The position numbers and the translations under genes were made by a program. A DNA stretch of 30,216 bases from a virus. Its lineage: Duplodnaviria; Heunggongvirae; Uroviricota; Caudoviricetes. Shown here piece after piece: positions 1 through 9,002 of this stretch. The notes below the pieces were generated by a model. The model was not told where the DNA came from. It was given only the letters and a program-made list of their open reading frames with translations, and did not search any database. Position 1 is the first letter of the stretch; each line of letters opens with the position of its first letter. The DNA lies in IMG/VR virus record IMGVR_UViG_2537561604_000012, one strand, 5' to 3'.

Positions 1-296
1 CTATTTATCGGAAGGTTTATCCTGCTGCGGTTTGTTGTTGACCATATCGCACAACATAGAGAGCAGCATTAACCGTACTTTAAAGGGAGAATGACTAAAC
101 ACGCGCATACACCTCTTGAACTCATTCATAAGACCTCCTGACTTGCTAATCCCATCGATCCTTGAGGGATGATTGCATTACATACAGATATAGCACAGGC
201 TATATTATAAAGCATCAACTATCTGCGAAAAACAACAACTTACAGTGTTATCAATAAGTTACGTTGGTTAATGTCTGTGAGTATTCGGCAGTATTT

Positions 297-1337
297 CTAA
301 GCTGTCGCGACATTTTTGCGACATTTTAGGGGGTTAAGTCGCACAGCATCTTCAAGGTGGCTTGGGGCGAAGTGGGCATAACGCATTGTCATGGTTATGT
401 CAGCGTGGCCGAGAATTTTTTGCAAAACCAGAATGTTTCCGCCGTTCATCATAAAGTGGCTGGCAAATGTATGGCGCAGTACATGGGTAAGCTGGCCGGA
501 GGGGAGTTCAATGCCTGCGCGTTCCAGAGCAGAGCGGAAAGCGTTGTAGCAGGGCTTGGGGAACAGAGCGCCTTTTGTTTCAGGTAATTCGGACAGAAGT
601 TCATCATCAAGGGGAATTGTTCTGTTGCGCTTCCCTTTGGTTTTGACGAACGTGACTTTACCCCCGGCGATCTGGGAGCTTTTCAGCGTTGCCGCCTCAT
701 TCCACCTTGCGCCGGTAGCAAGGCAGATTTTGACAACTAATTCTAGGTACTTAACTTTGCTTCGTTTGCATTCCAGTAAAAGCCGATCAATTTCTTCGGT
801 AGTGAGGAAAGCCATTTCGGTTTCATCAGTACGATACTGTCTGACGTTTTCCAGTGGGTTGGGTGCTGACCATTCACCAATCCGTTTCAGTTCATTGAAC
901 ATCGCTAGAAAGTAAGCATGTTCAAGGTTCATAGTTTTCGGGGAAACCTTAGATACTCTGTTGGTGCGGGCATAATGCCCATCCAGCCTTTTAGCGCGGT
1001 AGGCTGTGAACAACTGGGCATTAAATTCTGTGGCCAGCGGGAATCCCATGCATTCCGCCGCCCAGGTCATAGCATCTTTACGCTTTTCGCCATTGCTCAA
1101 AGCTACGCCGTGGCGTTCATACCACATTGTTATCAGATCTATTAAAGTTCGCTTGTCCTTCCCTTCACCCAGCCACGGAGCTGCGTCTACTTTCTGAAGC
1201 GTATGGTTTTCGAATGCCAGGGCTTCCCCTTTCGTGGCAAATTTTTTACGTATACGCTTCCCGTTCTTGCCATTACTGCGGTTGACGGTGTAGAAGTCGG
1301 CGATCCATTCGCCTGTAGGAAGTTTACGAACGCTCAT
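297..1337 (-). CDS. int: Tyrosine site-specific integrase (phage integrase family)
   Basis: 346 aa ORF; C-terminal catalytic region with HVLRHTFAS (R..H-x-x-R box) and MTMRYAHF (catalytic Tyr); start ATG (1335-1337) directly follows repressor stop (TAAAATG), as in 186 cI-int operon. Confidence 0.9.
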   Translation of the reverse strand: MSVRKLPTGEWIADFYTVNRSNGKNGKRIRKKFATKGEALAFENHTLQKVDAAPWLGEGKDKRTLIDLITMWYERHGVALSNGEKRKDAMTWAAECMGFPLATEFNAQLFTAYRAKRLDGHYARTNRVSKVSPKTMNLEHAYFLAMFNELKRIGEWSAPNPLENVRQYRTDETEMAFLTTEEIDRLLLECKRSKVKYLELVVKICLATGARWNEAATLKSSQIAGGKVTFVKTKGKRNRTIPLDDELLSELPETKGALFPKPCYNAFRSALERAGIELPSGQLTHVLRHTFASHFMMNGGNILVLQKILGHADITMTMRYAHFAPSHLEDAVRLNPLKCRKNVATA

Positions 1338-1338
1338 T

Positions 1339-1920
1339 TTATTTTATCGTCAGAACAACGCGGCCTATGATTTTTATGTCGTCAATTCCGCAATCAAATG
1401 CCATACCAACACCGCTAACTCTGACTTTTCGTACCGGAATCCGTGTAAGAGTGCGGACGCTTGTTTTTCCTTCAACTTCAACCAACCAATCATCGTCATA
1501 AACTTCAGAATAAGACTGGTCAACAATGTACTGAATAAGGCCATCCAGAACACAAATCGGTTGTTGCGGTAAGGGCTTGCCAGGCAGGAAGATGACTTTA
1601 TCAAGCATAAGTGTGCCAGCGTCATAGAGTTGGCCATCAACAATCTTGCTGCGCGGCATTTTGAGTATGTCTAATTCATCATCATTAAATTTACGTCCCT
1701 GTCCTGTTGCCAGCCACTCCAGATTAGCGCCTGTTTCGGCTACGCATTTCACGACAATATCTGCCGGGAAAACTCCACGCTTGTAGCGTGAAGAAAGAGA
1801 ACTGGCTGCCATGTCCAGATGTTCCGCGAGCTGTAACTTCTGCGTAAATCCGTAAGCCTCGATCACCCTGTCAAGAATCGGTGTGCTATCTACGTTTAGG
1901 TCGATTTTAAATGTGCTCAT
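1339..1920 (-). CDS. cI: CI-type immunity repressor (186 CI-like, N-terminal HTH)
   Basis: ORF open 1339-1962 (first codon GTG); first ATG giving MSTFKIDLNVDSTPILDRVIEAYGF... is at 1918-1920 (193 aa). N-terminal HTH-like segment ending ...ETGANLEWLATGQG; located between int and divergent early operon. Start choice is by analogy to size of 186 CI; not verified. Confidence 0.7.
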   Translation of the reverse strand: MSTFKIDLNVDSTPILDRVIEAYGFTQKLQLAEHLDMAASSLSSRYKRGVFPADIVVKCVAETGANLEWLATGQGRKFNDDELDILKMPRSKIVDGQLYDAGTLMLDKVIFLPGKPLPQQPICVLDGLIQYIVDQSYSEVYDDDWLVEVEGKTSVRTLTRIPVRKVRVSGVGMAFDCGIDDIKIIGRVVLTIK

Positions 1921-1955
1921 AGCGAATCCATAAGTCTCGATTCGAGAAATTGCCA

Positions 1956-1984
1956 TTGACACTTCTCGAAACGCGAATTAATCT
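1956..1984 (+). promoter_or_regulatory. Candidate sigma70 early lytic promoter (pR-like): -35 TTGACA (1956-1961), 17-nt spacer, -10 TAATCT (1979-1984)
   Basis: Read directly: ttgacacttctcgaaacgcgaattaatct; flanked by inverted repeat TCGAGAA (1942-1948)/TTCTCGA (1963-1969) that could be a repressor operator; ~70 nt upstream of apl/cox-like start. Confidence 0.4.
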
Positions 1985-2008
1985 GGCTCCATATTTCGAA
2001 TGTTGCCT

Positions 2009-2038
2009 TATATAACCCTGTATTGCCGTACAGGTTAA
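2009..2038 (-). promoter_or_regulatory. Candidate leftward promoter (pL-like) facing pR: -35 TTAACC (revcomp of 2033-2038), 18-nt spacer, -10 TATATA (2009-2014)
   Basis: Reverse complement of 2009-2038 reads ttaacc-N18-tatata; would give face-to-face promoter arrangement known for phage 186 switch. Weak -35; inference only. Confidence 0.3.
2017..2034. promoter_or_regulatory. Perfect 18-bp palindrome CCTGTATTGCCGTACAGG (contains CTGT-N8-ACAG) in switch region / apl leader; candidate operator
   Basis: Sequence 2017-2034 is its own reverse complement; lies between putative pL -35 and -10 and 22 nt upstream of apl/cox start. Confidence 0.45.
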
Positions 2039-2055
2039 CTTGTGGAGTTTGCCTT

Positions 2056-2277
2056 ATGCGTCCGAACATTACAATCATCATCCCAGAACCATACCTGCCT
2101 TTAGACGAGTATTGCCGCCGTACTGGCACCAACAAAGAAACCGCCAGGAACCTGATCGAATACGGAAAATTACCTATTAAGCCGAAGGGTAAGCAGAAGA
2201 AAGGCCTGGTCGAAGTCAACATGGCCGCGCTCACTATTCAGGCTTTAAGTGAATGTGACATTTCGCTTAACGCGTAA
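2056..2277 (+). CDS. Cox/Apl-like small DNA-binding regulator (excisionase / lytic-switch regulator)
   Basis: 73 aa from ATG 2056 (RBS GGAG at 2044-2047); first gene of rightward early operon divergent from cI, position and size as P2 cox / 186 apl. ORF track frame extends to 2023 but without RBS. Confidence 0.6.
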   Translation: MRPNITIIIPEPYLPLDEYCRRTGTNKETARNLIEYGKLPIKPKGKQKKGLVEVNMAALTIQALSECDISLNA

Positions 2278-2307
2278 TCCATCCTACGGATTAGGGAGAG
2301 GCAAACA

Positions 2308-2811
2308 ATGTTTGATTACCAGACATCTAAACATGCGCACTTTGATGCGGCTTGCCGAGCATTTGCAACTGAGCACAATCTTGAAGATGTGGCCGCTGCT
2401 GTTGGTATGAGGCCACAGATCTTGCGCAACAAACTGAACCCAGCGCAACCGCACCGCCTAACCTGTGATGAGCTTTTGGCTATCACGGATTACACCGAAG
2501 ATGCACGTTTACTTGATGGGATGTTAGGTCAGATTAACTGCCTTCCATCCGTGCCGGTGAACAATGCCACTGAAGCCAACATGCAACTGTGTGCGCTTAG
2601 CGCCACTGCGTGTGTGGGAGCGATTGCTGGGGAAGCCGTATCAACTGGCCATATGACCGCCGCCCGCCGTGCTCAAATTTTGGATCGCGCCCGCGATGCA
2701 ATCCGTAGCTTATCCGTGCTGGCTTATACCGTTGAAAGCCGTATTCACTCTGCGCCGGTTCTGGCTGCTGCGGTGGATCTGGTCACAACCCACGCCACCG
2801 GCCTGATGTGA
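2308..2811 (+). CDS. CII-like early regulator (186 CII-sized, 167 aa)
   Basis: Second gene of early operon, RBS GGAGAGG upstream; size/position as 186 cII; N-terminal HTH-like segment. Function inferred from synteny. Confidence 0.5.
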   Translation: MFDYQTSKHAHFDAACRAFATEHNLEDVAAAVGMRPQILRNKLNPAQPHRLTCDELLAITDYTEDARLLDGMLGQINCLPSVPVNNATEANMQLCALSATACVGAIAGEAVSTGHMTAARRAQILDRARDAIRSLSVLAYTVESRIHSAPVLAAAVDLVTTHATGLM

Positions 2812-2820
2812 GGGAACACT

Positions 2821-2994
2821 ATGAAAGCGTTTGTCACTTACCTGAAAAAAGAATCACCAGCCATGCAGTTGCCGAGTGGTTCAACGGGCTGGATAGAACT
2901 GCCGAACGGTCAGCGCTGGAACCCAGGCCACATTTACAAATTCAATGGCCAGCAGCCGCGCCGCCCGTGGTGGCGTCGTCTGATGGGGCTATAG
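2821..2994 (+). CDS. Small hypothetical protein (57 aa), not in supplied ORF track
   Basis: ATG 2821 preceded by AGGGA; translates MKAFVTYLKKESPAMQLPSGSTGWIELPNGQRWNPGHIYKFNGQQPRRPWWRRLMGL; stop TAG 2992-2994 overlaps strong RBS AGGAGG of next gene. Alternative to the 5' part of track ORF 2808-3431. Confidence 0.4.
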   Translation: MKAFVTYLKKESPAMQLPSGSTGWIELPNGQRWNPGHIYKFNGQQPRRPWWRRLMGL

Positions 2995-3002
2995 GAGGCG
3001 TT

Positions 3003-3431
3003 ATGGCGATTAGCCAGGAACAGCAAAAGCGCGGGCTGGAGCATTTAAAACAGATCCGCCGCAAATACTTCAGCAAAAGCAGCGAGGCCGCTGAATGGTG
3101 GGACAACTTAACACCGGAGTGGCGCGGCGTAGTGCTTCATGCTGCTGCGGTTACATCTGGTACCGGGGCATTTAAAGCCCATTTAAGTAAGTGCTGCTGG
3201 CGGGAGCTTTATGACCGCCTGGGCTATCGGGACATGATTCAACTGCGCCAGGGCATTTCACGGGCGCGGTTAACGTTTGAAGGTTTCGGCAGTTTACGTG
3301 ACAGCGATTTTTCGAAGCGCACCGCGAACCGCTCGATCAAAAAAGTACATCCCATTTATAGCAGTGGCGGGGTGCAGATGGTGATCGCGCCGCATATCGT
3401 CCATAAGTTCCAGCAACAGGGGAATCACTAA
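3003..3431 (+). CDS. Hypothetical early-region protein (142 aa)
   Basis: ATG 3003 with AGGAGG 4-9 nt upstream; same frame as track ORF 2808-3431 but with credible start; no recognisable motif. Confidence 0.55.
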   Translation: MAISQEQQKRGLEHLKQIRRKYFSKSSEAAEWWDNLTPEWRGVVLHAAAVTSGTGAFKAHLSKCCWRELYDRLGYRDMIQLRQGISRARLTFEGFGSLRDSDFSKRTANRSIKKVHPIYSSGGVQMVIAPHIVHKFQQQGNH

Positions 3432-3832
3432 TGACCATTATTTCCGTTGAGGGCAAATCGTTGGGGGCAGAGCTGGCTGTGTGGGGCGTCCCGCATAACT
3501 ACGCATTAGCGTTTGCAGAGAAAAGCACCAGTAAAAATGGGCGTATCGCTTTGCATCCGTTCTTCTTCAATGACACTGAACACATGACAAATCCGCGTCA
3601 CTGGCTGGCGATCAATGCTGCTTTCTGGTGCTGCGTGTATCGCGAAGCGGAAAGCAAAGAAGCCCAGATAGAAGCGCTGGCGGGGATTCGTGCAATTTTC
3701 TATACAGCCGGGGCATTGGGAGTTGGCGAGATAAAAGCGCTGATCCAGGAGTGGTGGCGGACAACCTATGAGCTGCACCTGATTCCGGCTCCGAACTACT
3801 CAGCCGCCACAGTACAACCCACTTTTCACTAA
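3431..3832 (+). CDS. Hypothetical early-region protein (133 aa)
   Basis: ATGA overlap with preceding stop (translational coupling); no recognisable motif. Confidence 0.55.
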   Translation: MTIISVEGKSLGAELAVWGVPHNYALAFAEKSTSKNGRIALHPFFFNDTEHMTNPRHWLAINAAFWCCVYREAESKEAQIEALAGIRAIFYTAGALGVGEIKALIQEWWRTTYELHLIPAPNYSAATVQPTFH

Positions 3833-3851
3833 TTAACAGCCTGAATTTTTT

Positions 3852-3870
3852 GGCCACGGTTCAAGTGGCC
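3852..3870 (+). promoter_or_regulatory. GC hairpin (GGCCAC-ggttcaa-GTGGCC) between early genes; possible attenuator/partial terminator
   Basis: 6-bp perfect stem, 7-nt loop, T-run upstream (3845-3850) and interrupted T-run downstream; no clean U-tract so weak. Confidence 0.25.
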
Positions 3871-3899
3871 GGGGATTCTTTTGCCTTAAGGAAACCAAA

Positions 3900-4133
3900 A
3901 TGCACATGACACGTCAGGATTTACCCGCAACAAAATCAGGCACCGACCTGCTGGCCATGCTCACCAAAGCCACGCAGGAAGGTAAAGCCGCAGTTGCTGA
4001 TCTGTGTTCCACCCGTCTGGATAAGCTGGCCACTCATGCGGCCAATGAAGGTTTAAGCGCAACGGAAATCGTTGAGTTAATCCGCGAAGAAGCCGCAGCG
4101 ATTTGCAGCAAAGGCGGTGCGGCATGGCAGTAA
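3900..4133 (+). CDS. Hypothetical small protein (77 aa)
   Basis: ATG 3900 with AGGA at 3889-3892; Ala/Leu-rich helical; no motif recognised. Confidence 0.5.
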
Positions 4134-4453
4134 AAATTCATGCGGTAAAAATTGCGCCAAAATATCTTGATGCAGTAGTGGCTGGTCAGAAAAAGGCCGA
4201 GCTGCGAAAAAACGATCGCGGGTATAAAACCGGTGATGTTCTTTCATTGTGCGAGTGGAAGCACGGGAAATACACCGGGCGAGAGTGGGCGGCAGTTATC
4301 ACCCATGTTTTGCCGGTGAATGAAATTATCGCTGATACCGAAAATTGGGTGGTTTTATCTATCCGTTCGCTGTCACCGCTTGAAGTGCTGGAATACATCA
4401 TTTCAAACGGTGTAACAGAGTCGTTAGTTGGCGGAGGTCAATATGGCCGTTAA
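4124..4453 (+). CDS. DUF3850 / ASCH-like domain protein
   Basis: From ATG 4124: [55 protein letters not shown]... matches the conserved DUF3850/ASCH pattern (K-x-FE-x-RKNDR ... GD-x-L ... E ... YTGR) as I recall it; overlaps preceding stop. Confidence 0.65.
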
Positions 4454-5303
4454 AACTCCGCTTAAATGGGTGGGCAGCAAAGCCCGCCTCATGCCTAAGC
4501 TGCGTCCGCACCTTCCAGAAGGTAAACGCCTGGTTGAACCGTTCGCAGGTTCCTGCGCCGTCATGATGAATACGGATTATGACGAGTATCTGATCGCAGA
4601 TGTGAATCCTGACCTGGTTAATCTTTATAAGGCGATGGCGTATCACACTAATGCGCTGCTGAATGAGCTGGAGATCCTGTTTTCTGCCGGTTCGTTAGGT
4701 GATGTAGAAAGCCGTGCCGTTTTCTATTACGCAGTGCGTGATGCTTTCAATCTTTCTGGTGGTAAGGCCGGTTCTGAATCTGTTGAAAATGCTGCGCGTT
4801 TCCTGTACCTGAACCGGCACTGCTTCAATGGTCTGTGTCGGTATAACCGTCGAGGCCAGTTCAACGTCCCGTTCGGTAAGTACAAAAAGCCTTATTTCCC
4901 CGCTGATGAAATCCGCGCCTTTGCTGAAAAAGCAAAACGCGCAACGTTCATTACTGCCCACTATTCAGAAACGCTTGATTTGGTTCGGGGCGGGAGTGAC
5001 GTTGTTTACTGTGATCCGCCTTATCTGACTGATGCCGACAATTTCACCGCTTACCATGAGCGCGGTTTTTCGCATATGGATCAGGGGCGGCTGGCGCGTA
5101 AACTGCGCCGTCTGGCGGAACGTGGGATTCCCGTTGTCGCGTCAAACAGCGATCTGGAAATGGTGCATTACCTGTATGCAGGGTTTGACGCCGTAAAGGT
5201 TAATGCGCCGCGTAGTGTCGGTGCGGCAGCTGCAAGCCCGAAAACGGCGGCAGAGCTGATTCTTAAATGGCCTTTACCGGCGACTTCTGAGGCCAGCGCA
5301 TGA
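4443..5303 (+). CDS. dam: DNA N6-adenine methyltransferase (Dam/D12 class)
   Basis: ATG 4443 with GGAGG 4433-4437; motifs PFAGSCAV (SAM-binding motif I) and DPPY (catalytic motif IV), [10 protein letters not shown]-terminal motif typical of Dam family. Confidence 0.85.
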
Positions 5304-7321
5304 CGCTGGCAATAAACGAACAATGCTATGCCGTTGATGCCTGGAGGCGGGAAACTTTCGCACCAGGCACACCGGCAGACGCGACTATCACAGAACGCCG
5401 CCTGTGGGCTGTAAACCCGCAGGATTATGAATGGCGATCCCGGTACCTGCATGAGATACCCGACTGGTTAGCCGGGTATTTTGGCCGTCGCTATGAAAAG
5501 CTTTTTTCTGGCCGTGACGGGCGTCGCCGTGCCAATACATTCCTGCGCAAAACAATCGGTGAGAATGTATTGCCACGTCTGCGCAAAGTGGCTGCGCGTT
5601 ACTCGCTGGCCGCTGATGCTGCTGATCTTCCTTTTGGTAAGTCGCTGGAGCGCTTGCCGTCACTAGACCGTCCTGATCTTAAAAAACTGGCTGGCCAGGT
5701 ATCTGGCTGGATTTCCCAGTCACTTTATGACTTCACCGAACAGTTTGATTCCGGCACTGACGACGCCAGAGAGCTGCATCGCCGCACTCTGGAATCTTAC
5801 CGCCATCTTTGTGCCTGTTGCCTGATGCTGAATAACCAGCCGCCGTACTGGACTGAACATGAGGCCAATGAAGGTCAACTGGAAATGCGTAAGGCGGAAT
5901 CCGGGATACTGCGCATGATGGCGCCGGAATGGTGGTACCTGCGTCTTAAACGTGCGCGTGATACGCAGCGCGAGCACATGGCCATTGCGGTGGGACAGGT
6001 GCAAAAAGCGGCCAGCGCTTATGTATCCCGCAAAACACTGGGTGAATGGATAGACCAGAAAAAGCGGAATCTGGAGTTCTTTAAAAAGTTTGATCTGCTG
6101 AATGATGAGGGGCTGCGCATTGCACTGGACAGCATGGTGCACCGCAGCGTTGCAAATCCGGCGATCCGTCGATGTGAACTAATGGTAAGAATGCGAGGGT
6201 TTGAAGATATGGCCAATGAAGAAGGGCTGGCCGGTGAGTTTTACACTATCACCGCGCCATCACGTTTCCATGCGGTTCACAGCAAAGGGGGCTTTGTATC
6301 GCAATGGGATGGAAGTACGCCGCAGGATACCCAGCGCTATTTATGCGGCGTATGGGCAAAAGCGCGTGCAGCGATCTCGCGTGCTGGTATCCATGTATTT
6401 GGGTTTCGGGTTGTTGAGCCTCACCATGACGGGACACCGCACTGGCATATGTTGCTTTTTATGCGTCCGCAGGACGTGGACACGGTACGCGATATTCTTT
6501 GTTATCACGCCAGAATTACCGATTCTGAAGAACTGCAATCTGAAAAGGCGCTGAAGGCGCGTTTTCATGTTGAAGCTATCGATCCCGCCAAAGGTTCGGC
6601 CACGGGCTACATCGCGAAATACATTTCAAAAAATATTGATGGTTTTGCGCTGGATGGTGAGCAGGACGAAGAAACCGGCGAAAACCTGCGTGATATGGCT
6701 AAGTCCGTTTCCGCGTGGGCTTCACGCTGGCGTATTCGCCAGTTTCAGCAGATTGGTGGTGCGCCGGTAACCGTCTGGCGTGAGCTGCGTCGGTTGCGGG
6801 ATCAGGTACTGACAGATCGCAGAATGGATGCGGTTCTGGCCGCTGCTGATGTCGGGGACTGGGCTGCATATACCCAGGCGCAGGGAGGTGCACTGGTTGC
6901 CCGCCGTGATCTGGTTGTTCGTCTGGCCTATGAAATTACGGAACAGGGCAACGAATACGCGGAGGACGTGCAGCGCGTACAGGGTGTTTATTCTCCTTTG
7001 ATTCCTGATTCAGAAGTTTGCACCCGTCTGGTTAAGTGGCAAAAGGTTGCGAAGTTGGCCGAAGCGCCAGCGGAGGCGGGTTTTTCTGGCGGCAACGCCG
7101 CCCCTTGGAGTTCTGTCAATAACTGTACGGAGGGGGGAACCCGCAGACGGTTAAAACTGGAATTACGCAGTCGGGGTTTTGAGGGTTCCGATGAAGAAAT
7201 AGCCATTCTCCTGCGGGGTAGTGGTTTGATATTTGGTCAGGGGGCACTGATTTACCGCAATGGGCGGTTGAAGGAAACACGAAACGAACCATTGCAGGAG
7301 CTTTGGCCGGGGTGGTTATAG
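5300..7321 (+). CDS. A: Rolling-circle replication initiator endonuclease gpA (P2 A / 186 A family)
   Basis: 673 aa; HUH-type motif PHWHMLLF and active-site tyrosine motif TGYIAKYISK; ATGA overlap with dam stop; position at end of early operon. Confidence 0.9.
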   Translation: MTLAINEQCYAVDAWRRETFAPGTPADATITERRLWAVNPQDYEWRSRYLHEIPDWLAGYFGRRYEKLFSGRDGRRRANTFLRKTIGENVLPRLRKVAARYSLAADAADLPFGKSLERLPSLDRPDLKKLAGQVSGWISQSLYDFTEQFDSGTDDARELHRRTLESYRHLCACCLMLNNQPPYWTEHEANEGQLEMRKAESGILRMMAPEWWYLRLKRARDTQREHMAIAVGQVQKAASAYVSRKTLGEWIDQKKRNLEFFKKFDLLNDEGLRIALDSMVHRSVANPAIRRCELMVRMRGFEDMANEEGLAGEFYTITAPSRFHAVHSKGGFVSQWDGSTPQDTQRYLCGVWAKARAAISRAGIHVFGFRVVEPHHDGTPHWHMLLFMRPQDVDTVRDILCYHARITDSEELQSEKALKARFHVEAIDPAKGSATGYIAKYISKNIDGFALDGEQDEETGENLRDMAKSVSAWASRWRIRQFQQIGGAPVTVWRELRRLRDQVLTDRRMDAVLAAADVGDWAAYTQAQGGALVARRDLVVRLAYEITEQGNEYAEDVQRVQGVYSPLIPDSEVCTRLVKWQKVAKLAEAPAEAGFSGGNAAPWSSVNNCTEGGTRRRLKLELRSRGFEGSDEEIAILLRGSGLIFGQGALIYRNGRLKETRNEPLQELWPGWL

Positions 7322-7440: not shown

Positions 7441-7647
7441 ATGGATCTTTTGGAGGCGTCGGCACAGCTGGAACGCATTGAGTTATTGGCCAAAATTGCC
7501 CATGTTTACGAAAGTAACCAGAGAGAAAAAACAATCGCTTTGGCCTGGATTGGAGAGCTTGCGGGAGAGGTTCGCGAAATGGTTAAAAAGGAAGGGCAAC
7601 GCCCCCAGAATGGGGGCATTTCAGGCGGCGGGAGTCGCTTTCAGTAG
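7441..7647 (+). CDS. Small hypothetical protein (68 aa) downstream of SOS-box-like site; possible Tum-type antirepressor analogue
   Basis: ATG 7441 preceded by GGGGG; function inferred only from position (186 has LexA-controlled tum after gene A). 3' end overlaps convergent ogr-like gene and hairpin 7601-7617. Confidence 0.4.
   Translation: MDLLEASAQLERIELLAKIAHVYESNQREKTIALAWIGELAGEVREMVKKEGQRPQNGGISGGGSRFQ
7601..7617 (-). terminator. GC-rich hairpin GCCCCCA-gaa-TGGGGGC just downstream of ogr-like stop; candidate terminator of P-Q-ogr transcript
   Basis: 7-bp perfect stem; on minus strand followed within ~12 nt by TTTTT (plus 7584-7588 aaaaa). U-tract not adjacent so moderate. Confidence 0.35.
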
Positions 7648-7890
7648 GTCTAATGCCATCTGGCGCTGATCGGGTGAAAGTGCATTCAGTATTTTTTGCA
7701 CCATCGCATCACCCGCTTTAGCGCTGGGGCTGAGAGTGTGGGAGAACGTCAGATTCATAACAAACGTGTGGCCACACTCAACATCTGAACAGGCGCAGTA
7801 AATATCCGCAATTTGCCGGTGCTTCCTGTTCGTTTTACGAATAACAGCCTTTGAGCCGCATTCCGGGCATTCGATTTTCAGAACTCGCAT
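7621..7890 (-). CDS. ogr: Ogr/Delta-family zinc-finger late-gene transcriptional activator
   Basis: From ATG 7888-7890 (RBS GGAG 8 nt upstream): MRVLKIECPECGS...IYCACSDVECGHTF gives C-x2-C-x20-C-x-C-x4-C with Y-x-C...C-x-x-TF, as in P2 Ogr (C-x2-C-x22-C-x4-C ... ATF). Alternative upstream ATG 7942-7944 overlaps Q stop (ATGA). Confidence 0.75.
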   Translation of the reverse strand: MRVLKIECPECGSKAVIRKTNRKHRQIADIYCACSDVECGHTFVMNLTFSHTLSPSAKAGDAMVQKILNALSPDQRQMALDLLKATPAA

Positions 7891-7940
7891 ATTCCATGCT
7901 CCAGCTGTTAAATGATGCCTGGATTTTAGCCTGTTTCGCC

Positions 7941-9002
7941 TCATGCCGCACCCTTATCCGTTGATTCTGTGTAACTTAAATCAAAGTTAAGGTGTAGCCT
8001 TTCCGGTATTTCGGGATCATTGTTAACGGCCAGCATAAAACGGCGCTGGATGGGGGCAATTTCGCTTTTCTTGTAAATGCGTTCAGCCTTTTCAACATCC
8101 CCCAGTCCGGCAGTGTTCTGCGGGACAATACCGGCGAGGCCAGCAGGGAAACGGTGAGCGTTCAGAATGTCCTGGGCGCTGATGTTCTTGATGTTGGCAA
8201 ATTCATCCTTTGCGGAAATATCCCCCATTTCAATGAATTTGATGGCGTCGCCGTCTCCACCGGGAATGTTTACAAGGATGGTGGAGAAGTTACCGATCCC
8301 TTTGCTGTCACGCAGCTGCTGTTCAATTTCTTCCTCCATTTCGTCCGTCATGCTGGGATCGCGGGTATAAAGAATACCGCCTGTGTGCGCACCATTGTGG
8401 TAATAGCGGCGTCGGAAAATGACCGCTTCACTGTTAAGTAACGCGGAATGCACACCGCCTATGTAGTCCGGCAGCCCGTAGATATGCTGTTGCGGGTCAT
8501 ACATTTTGATGAAGATAATATCTTCTTCTGGCCATACCTGCGGTTCCCCTTCCTGTAACACCACGTAGTCACCAGGCTTATCCAGGGCGTTATCTCTGAC
8601 TTTGCGGCGGCGAATATACAGACCGGGCAAGGGTTCAAGTGCGATCACGTCACCCCAGCCGTTACGAATTTTGGCAATCGCAATATCCCCAAAGGTTATA
8701 TAGTCAAACGCTGCCGCTTCCAGCTGGTCGTGAATAAGCCCGCCCCCCTGGTAGTCTGAAACAATCATGTTTTTACGGGCGTGAATGATGCCGCCGTGCT
8801 GACCGTTAAGATTAATCAGTTGCGCGAGTGCCAGCCGGTCAATCGGCTGGGTGAAGTGATCGGCGGCATTGTCGTACCAGATATCACGGTAATCTGTGCC
8901 GGTAGTCAGAACTGGTTCAGGTTTGCCGAATGTGATAATGCTCATCTTTTTTGATTTGTCGCCGCGCTGGTCGCGCTTAACAAAGCGTTTCTTTTTACTC
9001 AT
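7941..9002 (-). CDS. Q: Portal (capsid portal vertex) protein, P2 gpQ-like
   Basis: 353 aa; immediately downstream of and overlapping (ATGA) the large terminase gene; size matches P2 Q (~344 aa). Confidence 0.8.
   Translation of the reverse strand: MSKKKRFVKRDQRGDKSKKMSIITFGKPEPVLTTGTDYRDIWYDNAADHFTQPIDRLALAQLINLNGQHGGIIHARKNMIVSDYQGGGLIHDQLEAAAFDYITFGDIAIAKIRNGWGDVIALEPLPGLYIRRRKVRDNALDKPGDYVVLQEGEPQVWPEEDIIFIKMYDPQQHIYGLPDYIGGVHSALLNSEAVIFRRRYYHNGAHTGGILYTRDPSMTDEMEEEIEQQLRDSKGIGNFSTILVNIPGGDGDAIKFIEMGDISAKDEFANIKNISAQDILNAHRFPAGLAGIVPQNTAGLGDVEKAERIYKKSEIAPIQRRFMLAVNNDPEIPERLHLNFDLSYTESTDKGAA

Follow-up and report, generated by a model that had tools for sequence, protein, structure and literature searches.

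A fixed early gene block and an exchangeable dam-containing slot between cII and gene A of a P2/186-type enterobacterial prophage

RESULTS

Gene content of the interval between cII and gene A

The window analysed here is the whole 30,216-nucleotide stretch of IMG/VR virus record IMGVR_UViG_2537561604_000012 (Caudoviricetes), and the element under study is the interval at positions 2821-5303, bounded by cII and by gene A. An earlier note, made from the sequence alone, had described this interval as the cII-to-A region of a P2/186-like phage. Both boundaries bore this out, with cII matching PF06892 (Phage_CP76; E 5.7e-47) on the left and gene A, a rolling-circle replication initiator gene, lying on the right; in relatives gene A is labelled 'nicking at origin of replication / replication endonuclease' and carries Phage_GPA (PF05840). 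Six close-packed genes on the same (+) strand fill the interval (i.e. fil, o142, o133, a DUF2732 gene, a DUF3850 gene and dam; Table 1), and the open reading frames (ORFs) listed in that note were all found where it had placed them, on that strand.

Each of the six genes is preceded by a Shine-Dalgarno-like sequence. As in coliphage 186, fil is the first gene after cII (cII end 2811, fil start 2821), and 8 nt separate fil from o142. The remaining junctions within the two gene sets are overlaps, of TAATG for o142/o133, 10 nt for DUF2732/DUF3850, 11 nt for DUF3850/dam and ATGA for dam/A. Selection was assessed as the median ratio of non-synonymous to synonymous substitution rates (dN/dS) for each gene against up to 95 related loci drawn from IMG/VR, GTDB genomes and annotated collections. 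Medians were 0.086 for fil, 0.090 for o142, 0.058 for o133, 0.105 for both the DUF2732 and DUF3850 genes and 0.113 for dam, as compared to 0.067 for cII. As these medians are low (i.e. 0.058-0.113), all six are real genes under purifying selection.

Table 1. Features of the interval and of its surroundings in the window
Feature	Positions	Strand	Description
fil	2821-2994	+	57 aa; basic, pI 11; short-tail variant; 186 Fil homologue
o142	3003-3431	+	142 aa; all-helical, strongly basic (pI 10.1, charge +11); lineage-specific family
o133	3431-3832	+	133 aa; translationally coupled to o142 via TAATG overlap
Predicted intrinsic terminator, 186 tR1 homologue	3847-3885	+	terminator scan, RNA fold, homology, covariation
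DUF2732 gene	3900-4133	+	77 aa; orthologue (family and position) of 186 CP80 and P2 Orf80
Cassette junction AAAGGCGGTGCGGCATGGCAGTAAAA	4110-4135	+	3' end of DUF2732 gene; Shine-Dalgarno sequence and ATG of next gene
DUF3850 gene	4124-4453	+	109 aa; ASCH/PUA-like superfamily; optional cargo
dam	4443-5303	+	286 aa; N6-adenine DNA methyltransferase; stop overlaps A start (5300-5303)
cII	2308-2811	+	left boundary
gene A	5300-7321	+	rolling-circle replication initiator; right boundary
mntS	1-129	-	prophage edge gene
integrase	297-1337	-	from reading of the first 7.3 kb
CI repressor, 186-type	1339-1962	-	from reading of the first 7.3 kb
Cox/Apl	about 2056-2277		from reading of the first 7.3 kb

The 57-aa ORF encodes a Fil-family protein

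The 57-aa ORF, which the earlier note had recovered after it was missed by the ORF track, proved to be a genuine gene. It was intact in every relative, and over codons 1-43 the 57-aa frame had a dN/dS of 0.037, against >2 for either alternative frame. The product matched Phage_186_Fil (PF10893; 40.1 bits, cut-off 25), with residues 1-37 covering profile positions 1-34 of 56, as well as the PHROG families phrog_7623 (E 4.7e-30) and phrog_816 ('cell division inhibitor', E 3.5e-8). The N-terminal 43 aa are conserved across relatives, whilst variants of the basic C-terminal tail produce forms of 57, 64 and 75 aa. The window and 186 proteins are only 28% identical, with a shorter tail in the window, but have in common the motif SP..Q....GW.....G.RW.P, and an alignment including 186 Fil contained the invariant columns L8, S12, P13, G23, W24, G30, R32, W33 and P35.

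The 186 GenBank record notes for fil that 'overexpression blocks cell division', and by homology the window Fil would block host cell division when made after derepression. A cell-division inhibitor had been proposed as one candidate role for the small proteins of the interval, and membership of the Fil family upholds this for the 57-aa ORF. Other short, early-expressed phage cell-division inhibitors that cause filamentation are lambda Kil, T7 Gp0.4 and Qin DicB. These are functional analogues of Fil, sharing the filamentation phenotype recorded for the family in the 186 GenBank note; a sequence relationship is not expected. No target of Fil was found in the literature searched. P2 Orf78 was considered as a Fil homologue and rejected as unrelated. 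The longest mechanically called ORF in this part of the interval (2808-3431, + strand; GTG start, 207 aa) is an artefact, as its first third overlaps fil out of frame; the true downstream gene, o142, starts at the ATG at 3003 behind AGGAGG.

Two departures from the usual arrangement were seen around fil in related loci (given here as L numbers with positions). In a decayed copy (L239:3001-3809), fil and o142 form a single in-frame fusion (203 aa) and an internal deletion shortens o133 (65 aa). An insert of ~750 bp separates cII and fil in L020:3606-4359 (also in L027, L033, L036, L038 and L052); it carries an opposite-strand ORF of 153 aa with no Pfam match and resembles a moron insertion at a second site.

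A conserved hairpin precedes the DUF2732 gene

The 67-nt spacer between o133 and the DUF2732 gene contains a hairpin whose core stem pairs GGCCAC (3852-3857) with GTGGCC (3865-3870) around the loop GGTTCAA (3858-3864) and which is followed by the tail GGGGATTCTTTTGCC. This hairpin was present in both the minimum free energy (MFE) and the centroid structures of the folded RNA. Over 27 aligned sequences, the six stem pairs were 93% maintained, with 7 double-change cells and compensatory exchanges of C-G to U-A. Covariation of the stem exceeded that of 500/500 shuffles and of all slid controls, and the loop was freely variable.

The annotated tR1 of 186 holds the equivalent position, immediately before the DUF2732 gene, and combines another stem with the same tail (CGGGCATTCTTTTGCC). 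A 'putative rho-independent terminator' with the tail GGGGCTTCTTTTTGCC is also found upstream of the DUF2732 gene in P2. The identical tail and position, together with maintenance of the stem by covariation, show this hairpin to be the homologue of tR1 and hence a putative intrinsic terminator. According to the 186 record, tR1 is anti-terminated during lytic development. By analogy, the predicted terminator would split the region into immediate-early genes (i.e. fil, o142 and o133) and replication-proximal genes (i.e. DUF2732, DUF3850, dam and A).

The terminators of P2 (L098:2481-2508), 186 (L005:3385-3413) and the window (3847-3885) represent three genera and exhibit a common tail, GGGG[A/C]TTCTTTT(T)GCC, on differing stems. 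This tail may carry a signal beyond the U-tract, e.g. one related to read-through or to ribosome binding at the following gene.

Variation is confined to a slot between the DUF2732 gene and gene A

The DUF2732 protein was assigned through PF10809 (46.2 bits, cut-off 25) and phrog_128 (E 2.3e-21), and its gene is the first after the terminator in 186, P2 and the window. The 186 record describes the corresponding protein, CP80, as of 'unknown function; not essential'. Synteny was examined in about 170 related loci, comprising 88 with a complete DUF2732-to-A interval and 80 probed with Fil. The order cII-fil-o142-o133-DUF2732 was invariant in the former and kept in 79/80 of the latter, with truncated or decayed copies as the exceptions. 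The same order was present in Serratia fonticola and Jejubacter, where o142 is 45-49% identical.

The slot between the DUF2732 gene and A differed among the 88 loci. Most contained dam alone (53/88), whilst the window arrangement of DUF3850 followed by dam occurred in 13, exonuclease with DUF3850 and dam in eight, PAPS reductase with or without dam in four, and exonuclease with dam but without DUF3850 in one; the remaining nine had none of the four probed genes (i.e. dam, DUF3850, exonuclease and PAPS reductase). Single loci carried a DndB-like gene or small unknown genes. Variation is confined to this slot and does not extend over the whole cII-to-A interval. The description of the interval as a variable region in the earlier note therefore holds for the slot, whereas fil-o142-o133-DUF2732 constitutes a fixed backbone with dN/dS as low as that of cII; the comparison across relatives that it had suggested served to delimit this conserved block from the swapped DUF2732-A slot.

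The left edge of the slot is a junction, AAAGGCGGTGCGGCATGGCAGTAAAA, that was kept in every relative whatever the cargo, and the right edge is the 5' end of A. Cargo genes begin with either ATGGCAGTAAAA (Dam and DUF3850) or ATGGAA(T/C)TGA (exonuclease, DndB-like, small unknowns and others). The junction resembles a docking site at which cassettes are exchanged by recombination. Besides dam, the slot collects genes related to DNA modification (i.e. PAPS reductase, DndB-like and exonuclease genes).

The DndB-like gene in the slot lies at L068:5033-6175 (PF14072, E 1e-47), and a PAPS-reductase gene resembling 186 orf84 occupies the slot in other loci. A 70-aa ORF with two apparent transmembrane segments was observed between dam and A in L021:3632-3844, L062:6556-6768 and about 25 other loci; the window lacks this ORF, for which Pfam gave no match.

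Dam and DUF3850 are optional cargo of the slot

The last gene of the interval had been read as a Dam-type adenine methyltransferase and its upstream neighbour as a DUF3850/ASCH-like protein, and profile searches agreed with both assignments. Dam matched PF02086 (MethyltransfD12; 221.9 bits, cut-off 22) and TIGR00571 (268.5 bits, cut-off 114.85), and in PADLOC it matched orphan and type II methyltransferase (MTase) models ('orphan MTase', E 3.4e-91). Aligned over 258 residues with E. coli Dam (2g1p), it shows 43% identity. E. coli residues K9, N120, L122, R124, P134, Y138 and D54 and the DPPY motif are conserved in the window protein, with DPPY at residues 191-194 and D53 aligned with E. coli D54, the aspartate that binds S-adenosylmethionine. 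The five residues that we take to be the GATC contacts in the 2g1p structure (i.e. K9, N120, L122, R124 and P134) are all identical; elsewhere, two positions differ conservatively (Y119F and R137K), and cysteine replaces the second glycine of the FxGxG motif. Possession of DPPY and of the GATC-contact residues is common to the window protein, E. coli Dam and orphan phage Dam enzymes of the D12 class, and this Dam-family enzyme very probably targets GATC.

Unlike that of E. coli Dam, the window gene is embedded in a phage replication operon. A housekeeping Dam orthologue was rejected, since the score against the NF008152 equivalog (256.2 bits) fell short of the cut-off of 441, making this protein a family member and not a host-type orthologue. 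No gene for a cognate endonuclease is adjacent to dam, indicating that it is an orphan phage methyltransferase. The 30-kb window contains 126 GATC sites (observed/expected 0.94), and neither avoidance nor clustering of GATC in the window gave a clue to the role of Dam. The gene is present in 78/88 related loci. In relatives lacking dam, its opening codons or a truncated form of the gene persist in the DUF2732-A slot (L011, L036, L038, L055 and L095); because of these remnants, dam is ancestral in the slot, dispensable and repeatedly lost.

The DUF3850 protein matched PF12961 (81.2 bits, cut-off 22.9), the ASCH family PF04266 (24.8 bits) and PDB entry 3iuw (E 2e-8), and is 48% identical to P2 Orf91 (E 3e-22). 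Its PADLOC hits were marginal (E 0.003) and were the only ones for any small ORF of the interval; its gene is present in 21/88 related loci. The catalytic residue of YqfB is a threonine. An ASCH amidohydrolase of the YqfB type was rejected, as the match to YqfB was marginal (E 0.16) and a glutamate occupies the position aligned with this threonine.

o142 and o133 form a lineage-specific pair

The earlier note had counted four small proteins of the interval as uncharacterised. This stands for o142 and o133 but not for Fil and the DUF2732 protein, which fall into named families. Searches of each small ORF by profile and structure, as the note had advised, produced assignments for the latter two and no match for the pair: neither o142 nor o133 matched Pfam, NCBIfam, PADLOC or PDB sequences, and PHROG matches were to families of unknown function only. 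A search of 5.8 billion proteins returned ~100-150 relatives of each, all from Enterobacterales, all 'hypothetical' and none with a Pfam domain, whilst a profile search with o133 against 1.84 billion cluster representatives gave 32 hits only. Sequenced phages that encode both proteins are limited to the ESSI2 group, Cronobacter phage ESSI-2 and a Salmonella phage (S.Kent 1-2-1), whilst a Yersinia phage has o133 without o142. AlphaFold2 modelled o133 with confidence (predicted local distance difference test score, pLDDT, 86.6; predicted template modelling score, pTM, 0.82). The two proteins have no sequence or fold relatives outside the P2-like prophages of Enterobacterales, and characterised homologues are lacking for both.

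The pair occupies the position held by dhr (a host-replication inhibitor) in 186 and by B (a helicase loader) in P2. Fixed presence, strong constraint, translational coupling and this position suggest a core early function.

Very remote relatives of o133 (E about 1e-6 to 3e-5) were detected in L180:5001-5393 and L181:5001-5411, with other small neighbours; these genes also lie between cII and the replicase gene of other P2-like prophages. The o133 fold may be older than its pairing with o142. For distant o133 relatives on short contigs, no gene context was obtained. In E. coli Combat13F7 (L004:6804-8543), codons 1-55 of o142 run in frame into the gene for a gpV/gp5-like tail-spike protein, giving a product of 579 aa. 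This fusion is a large internal deletion in a prophage remnant that otherwise shares 99.9-100% identity with the window over the int-to-fil stretch.

Closest relatives and comparison with the early operons of 186 and P2

The prophage is integrated between mntS and mntR, the site also used by related prophages of E. coli PSS-07 and Combat13F7, and similarly close prophages were found between these genes in 32/5426 complete E. coli genomes. Positions 2200-5400 exhibit 92-94% DNA identity to three Escherichia phages, ESSI2_ev015, ev040 and ev129 (Peduoviridae, Quadragintavirus), and the annotated cluster of ESSI2_ev015 is 93% identical to the interval. These phages and the E. coli mntS prophages share with the window the order CII-like, DUF2724/Fil, two hypotheticals, DUF2732, DUF3850 ('RNA-binding protein'), DNA methyltransferase and A. 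ESSI2-type phages differ in having either an additional 3'-5' exonuclease gene between DUF2732 and DUF3850 or no DUF3850. The exact gene combination of the window had no match in the phage or E. coli collections, and its gene architecture was common to three IMG/VR or GTDB loci. As no record of those collections carries this exact combination, the window represents a mosaic within a lineage that is well sampled. The genes of the cluster are already annotated alike in RefSeq relatives (i.e. Fil family, DUF2732, DUF3850, DNA adenine methylase and two hypotheticals).

The order in coliphage 186 is apl-cII-fil-dhr-tR1-CP80...orf84-A. Like the window, 186 has int, a CI repressor with Phage_CI_repr, Apl/Cox and CII, fil directly after cII, a terminator with the tail CGGG[G/C]ATTCTTTTGCC just before the DUF2732 gene, and a last accessory gene that overlaps the start of A (186 orf84 is translationally coupled to A). 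It differs in having dhr where the window has the unrelated o142-o133 pair and in carrying genes for a DksA-like Zn-finger protein, an exonuclease, a DUF5405 protein and PAPS reductase after DUF2732, where the window has DUF3850 and Dam. In P2, the order is cox-orf78-B-terminator-orf80-orf81-orf82-orf83-A-orf91. The terminator followed by a DUF2732 gene (Orf80), the DUF3850 protein (Orf91) and replicase A are common to P2 and the window, whereas P2 has no cII, fil or dam, its DUF3850 gene follows A and its B gene is unrelated to o142 and o133.

Interpretation of the interval and alternative explanations

The gene order, family memberships and boundaries make it likely that 2821-5303 is the ordinary distal segment of the pR (early lytic) operon in a temperate prophage of the P2/186 type (Peduoviridae). 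On derepression of the early promoter, transcription would run through cox/apl, cII, fil, o142 and o133 to the predicted terminator. Fil, by homology, would then block host division, and o142 and o133 would be made together and act as a pair, early, on the host DNA-replication or cell-cycle machinery. Read-through of the terminator would yield DUF2732, DUF3850, Dam and A, linked in translation by overlapping stop and start codons that would couple synthesis of the first three proteins to that of A. Dam would keep the fast-replicating phage DNA fully GATC-methylated whatever the Dam capacity of the host. Such methylation could protect against MboI/DpnII-type enzymes where host Dam is limiting or absent, a benefit that is evidently not indispensable.

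Several points weigh against parts of this interpretation. The usual hosts are Dam+ and dam has been lost or degraded in several relatives, leaving its selective role uncertain; the suggestion in the earlier note that Dam protects against GATC-sensing restriction is plausible but is qualified by these same facts. The hairpin was energetically unexceptional in single-sequence folding (z -1.08), so that the terminator call depends on homology and covariation. For the pair, AlphaFold2 gave a low-confidence model of o142 (pLDDT 65), structure comparison found no fold relatives of either protein, and hhalign probabilities against all early proteins of 186 and P2, including Dhr and B, were <=1.2%; position, conservation and coupling are what the assigned role draws upon. 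A simple promoter scan found no sigma-70-like sites in 1800-5600, which fits a single operon and is weak evidence. What was observed comprises the gene calls, the family assignments, purifying selection, synteny, conservation of the hairpin and the location of the variable parts, whilst all biochemical activities, termination, read-through and the role of o142/o133 are inferred.

It is conceivable, and tentatively favoured, that o142 and o133 provide a new two-protein early function directed at host replication or cell-cycle machinery, or at helicase loading. A Dhr-like action in host takeover is the single role to which we give most weight, although only as a possibility; the other roles considered are a B-like replication accessory role, anti-defence and, for the remainder, functions such as regulation or terminator read-through.

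A replication accessory role, in which o142 and o133 are the functional counterpart of P2 B (i.e. a DnaB helicase loader) and not host-takeover proteins, is the main alternative, although it appears unlikely. The pair does sit at the position of B, between the small ORF that follows cox or cII and the terminator preceding the DUF2732 gene. It is fixed in relatives, including a minimal Serratia version without cargo genes, its dN/dS is as low as that of cII, and o142 is strongly basic. However, P2 B has no sequence or profile similarity to either protein and helicase loaders gave no fold match, whilst in 186, which is closer in its regulation (i.e. of the CI/Apl/CII type), this slot is filled by dhr, a non-essential host inhibitor.

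An anti-defence role is more doubtful still, both for the pair and in the broader form that o142, o133, DUF2732 and DUF3850 are all anti-defence proteins and the whole interval an anti-defence island. Swapping of DNA-modification-type cargo (i.e. Dam, PAPS reductase, DndB-like and exonuclease genes) in the DUF2732-to-A slot is in its favour, and early expression would suit counter-defence. A 2025 preprint reports frequent fusion of DUF3850 to ParB-CTPase folds in phages, this enrichment leading its authors to suggest a possible role in anti-defence or phage-host interaction; it was the sole relevant result of a literature search on Fil, dhr, DUF2732, DUF3850 and prophage Dam. Against this, o142, o133 and DUF2732 are fixed and strongly constrained rather than patchy, DUF2732 is conserved from P2 to 186, no protein of the set (o142 and o133 included) is acidic as a DNA mimic would be, and no homology to described systems was found in Pfam, PHROGs, NCBIfam or PADLOC. 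Being fixed and constrained, fil-o142-o133-DUF2732 is unlike the usual swapped anti-defence cargo. The idea that the small proteins act as anti-restriction or anti-repressor factors, put forward in the earlier note, thus found no backing, there being no PADLOC, Pfam, PDB or fold link for o142 or o133.

Least probable is that DUF3850 and Dam form one module, e.g. with DUF3850 as a PUA-like reader or specificity partner for methylated or hemimethylated DNA: dam immediately follows DUF3850 in 21/21 related loci, usually with overlapping codons, and other members of the ASCH/PUA-like superfamily bind modified bases, but with dam in 78/88 loci the probability of 21/21 by chance is ~0.08 for loci that are non-independent, dam stands alone in 53 loci, and P2 has its DUF3850 gene (Orf91) after gene A and no dam. 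Obligate coupling of the two was rejected as indistinguishable from chance at this frequency of dam, with P2 as a counter-example.

On the preferred reading, an ordinary early operon segment, the cluster differs only by slight reshuffling from gene sets present in ESSI2-like Escherichia phages and many enterobacterial prophages, follows the plan of the classical early operons of 186 and P2, and as such matters little. Its value is for annotation: fil is masked by an erroneous longest-ORF call at 2808-3431, the tR1-homologous hairpin at 3847-3885 is predicted to separate immediate-early from replication-proximal genes, and the true site of cargo exchange is the DUF2732/A junction.

Other features of the window

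A search against Rfam returned zero families in the window. Downstream of A, an ORF of 68 aa and of unclear nature is present at 7441-7647 (+). This ORF is followed, on the opposite strand at 7621-7944 (-), by a gene whose 107-aa product shows the kind of C4 zinc-finger pattern that typifies late activators of the Ogr/Delta type.

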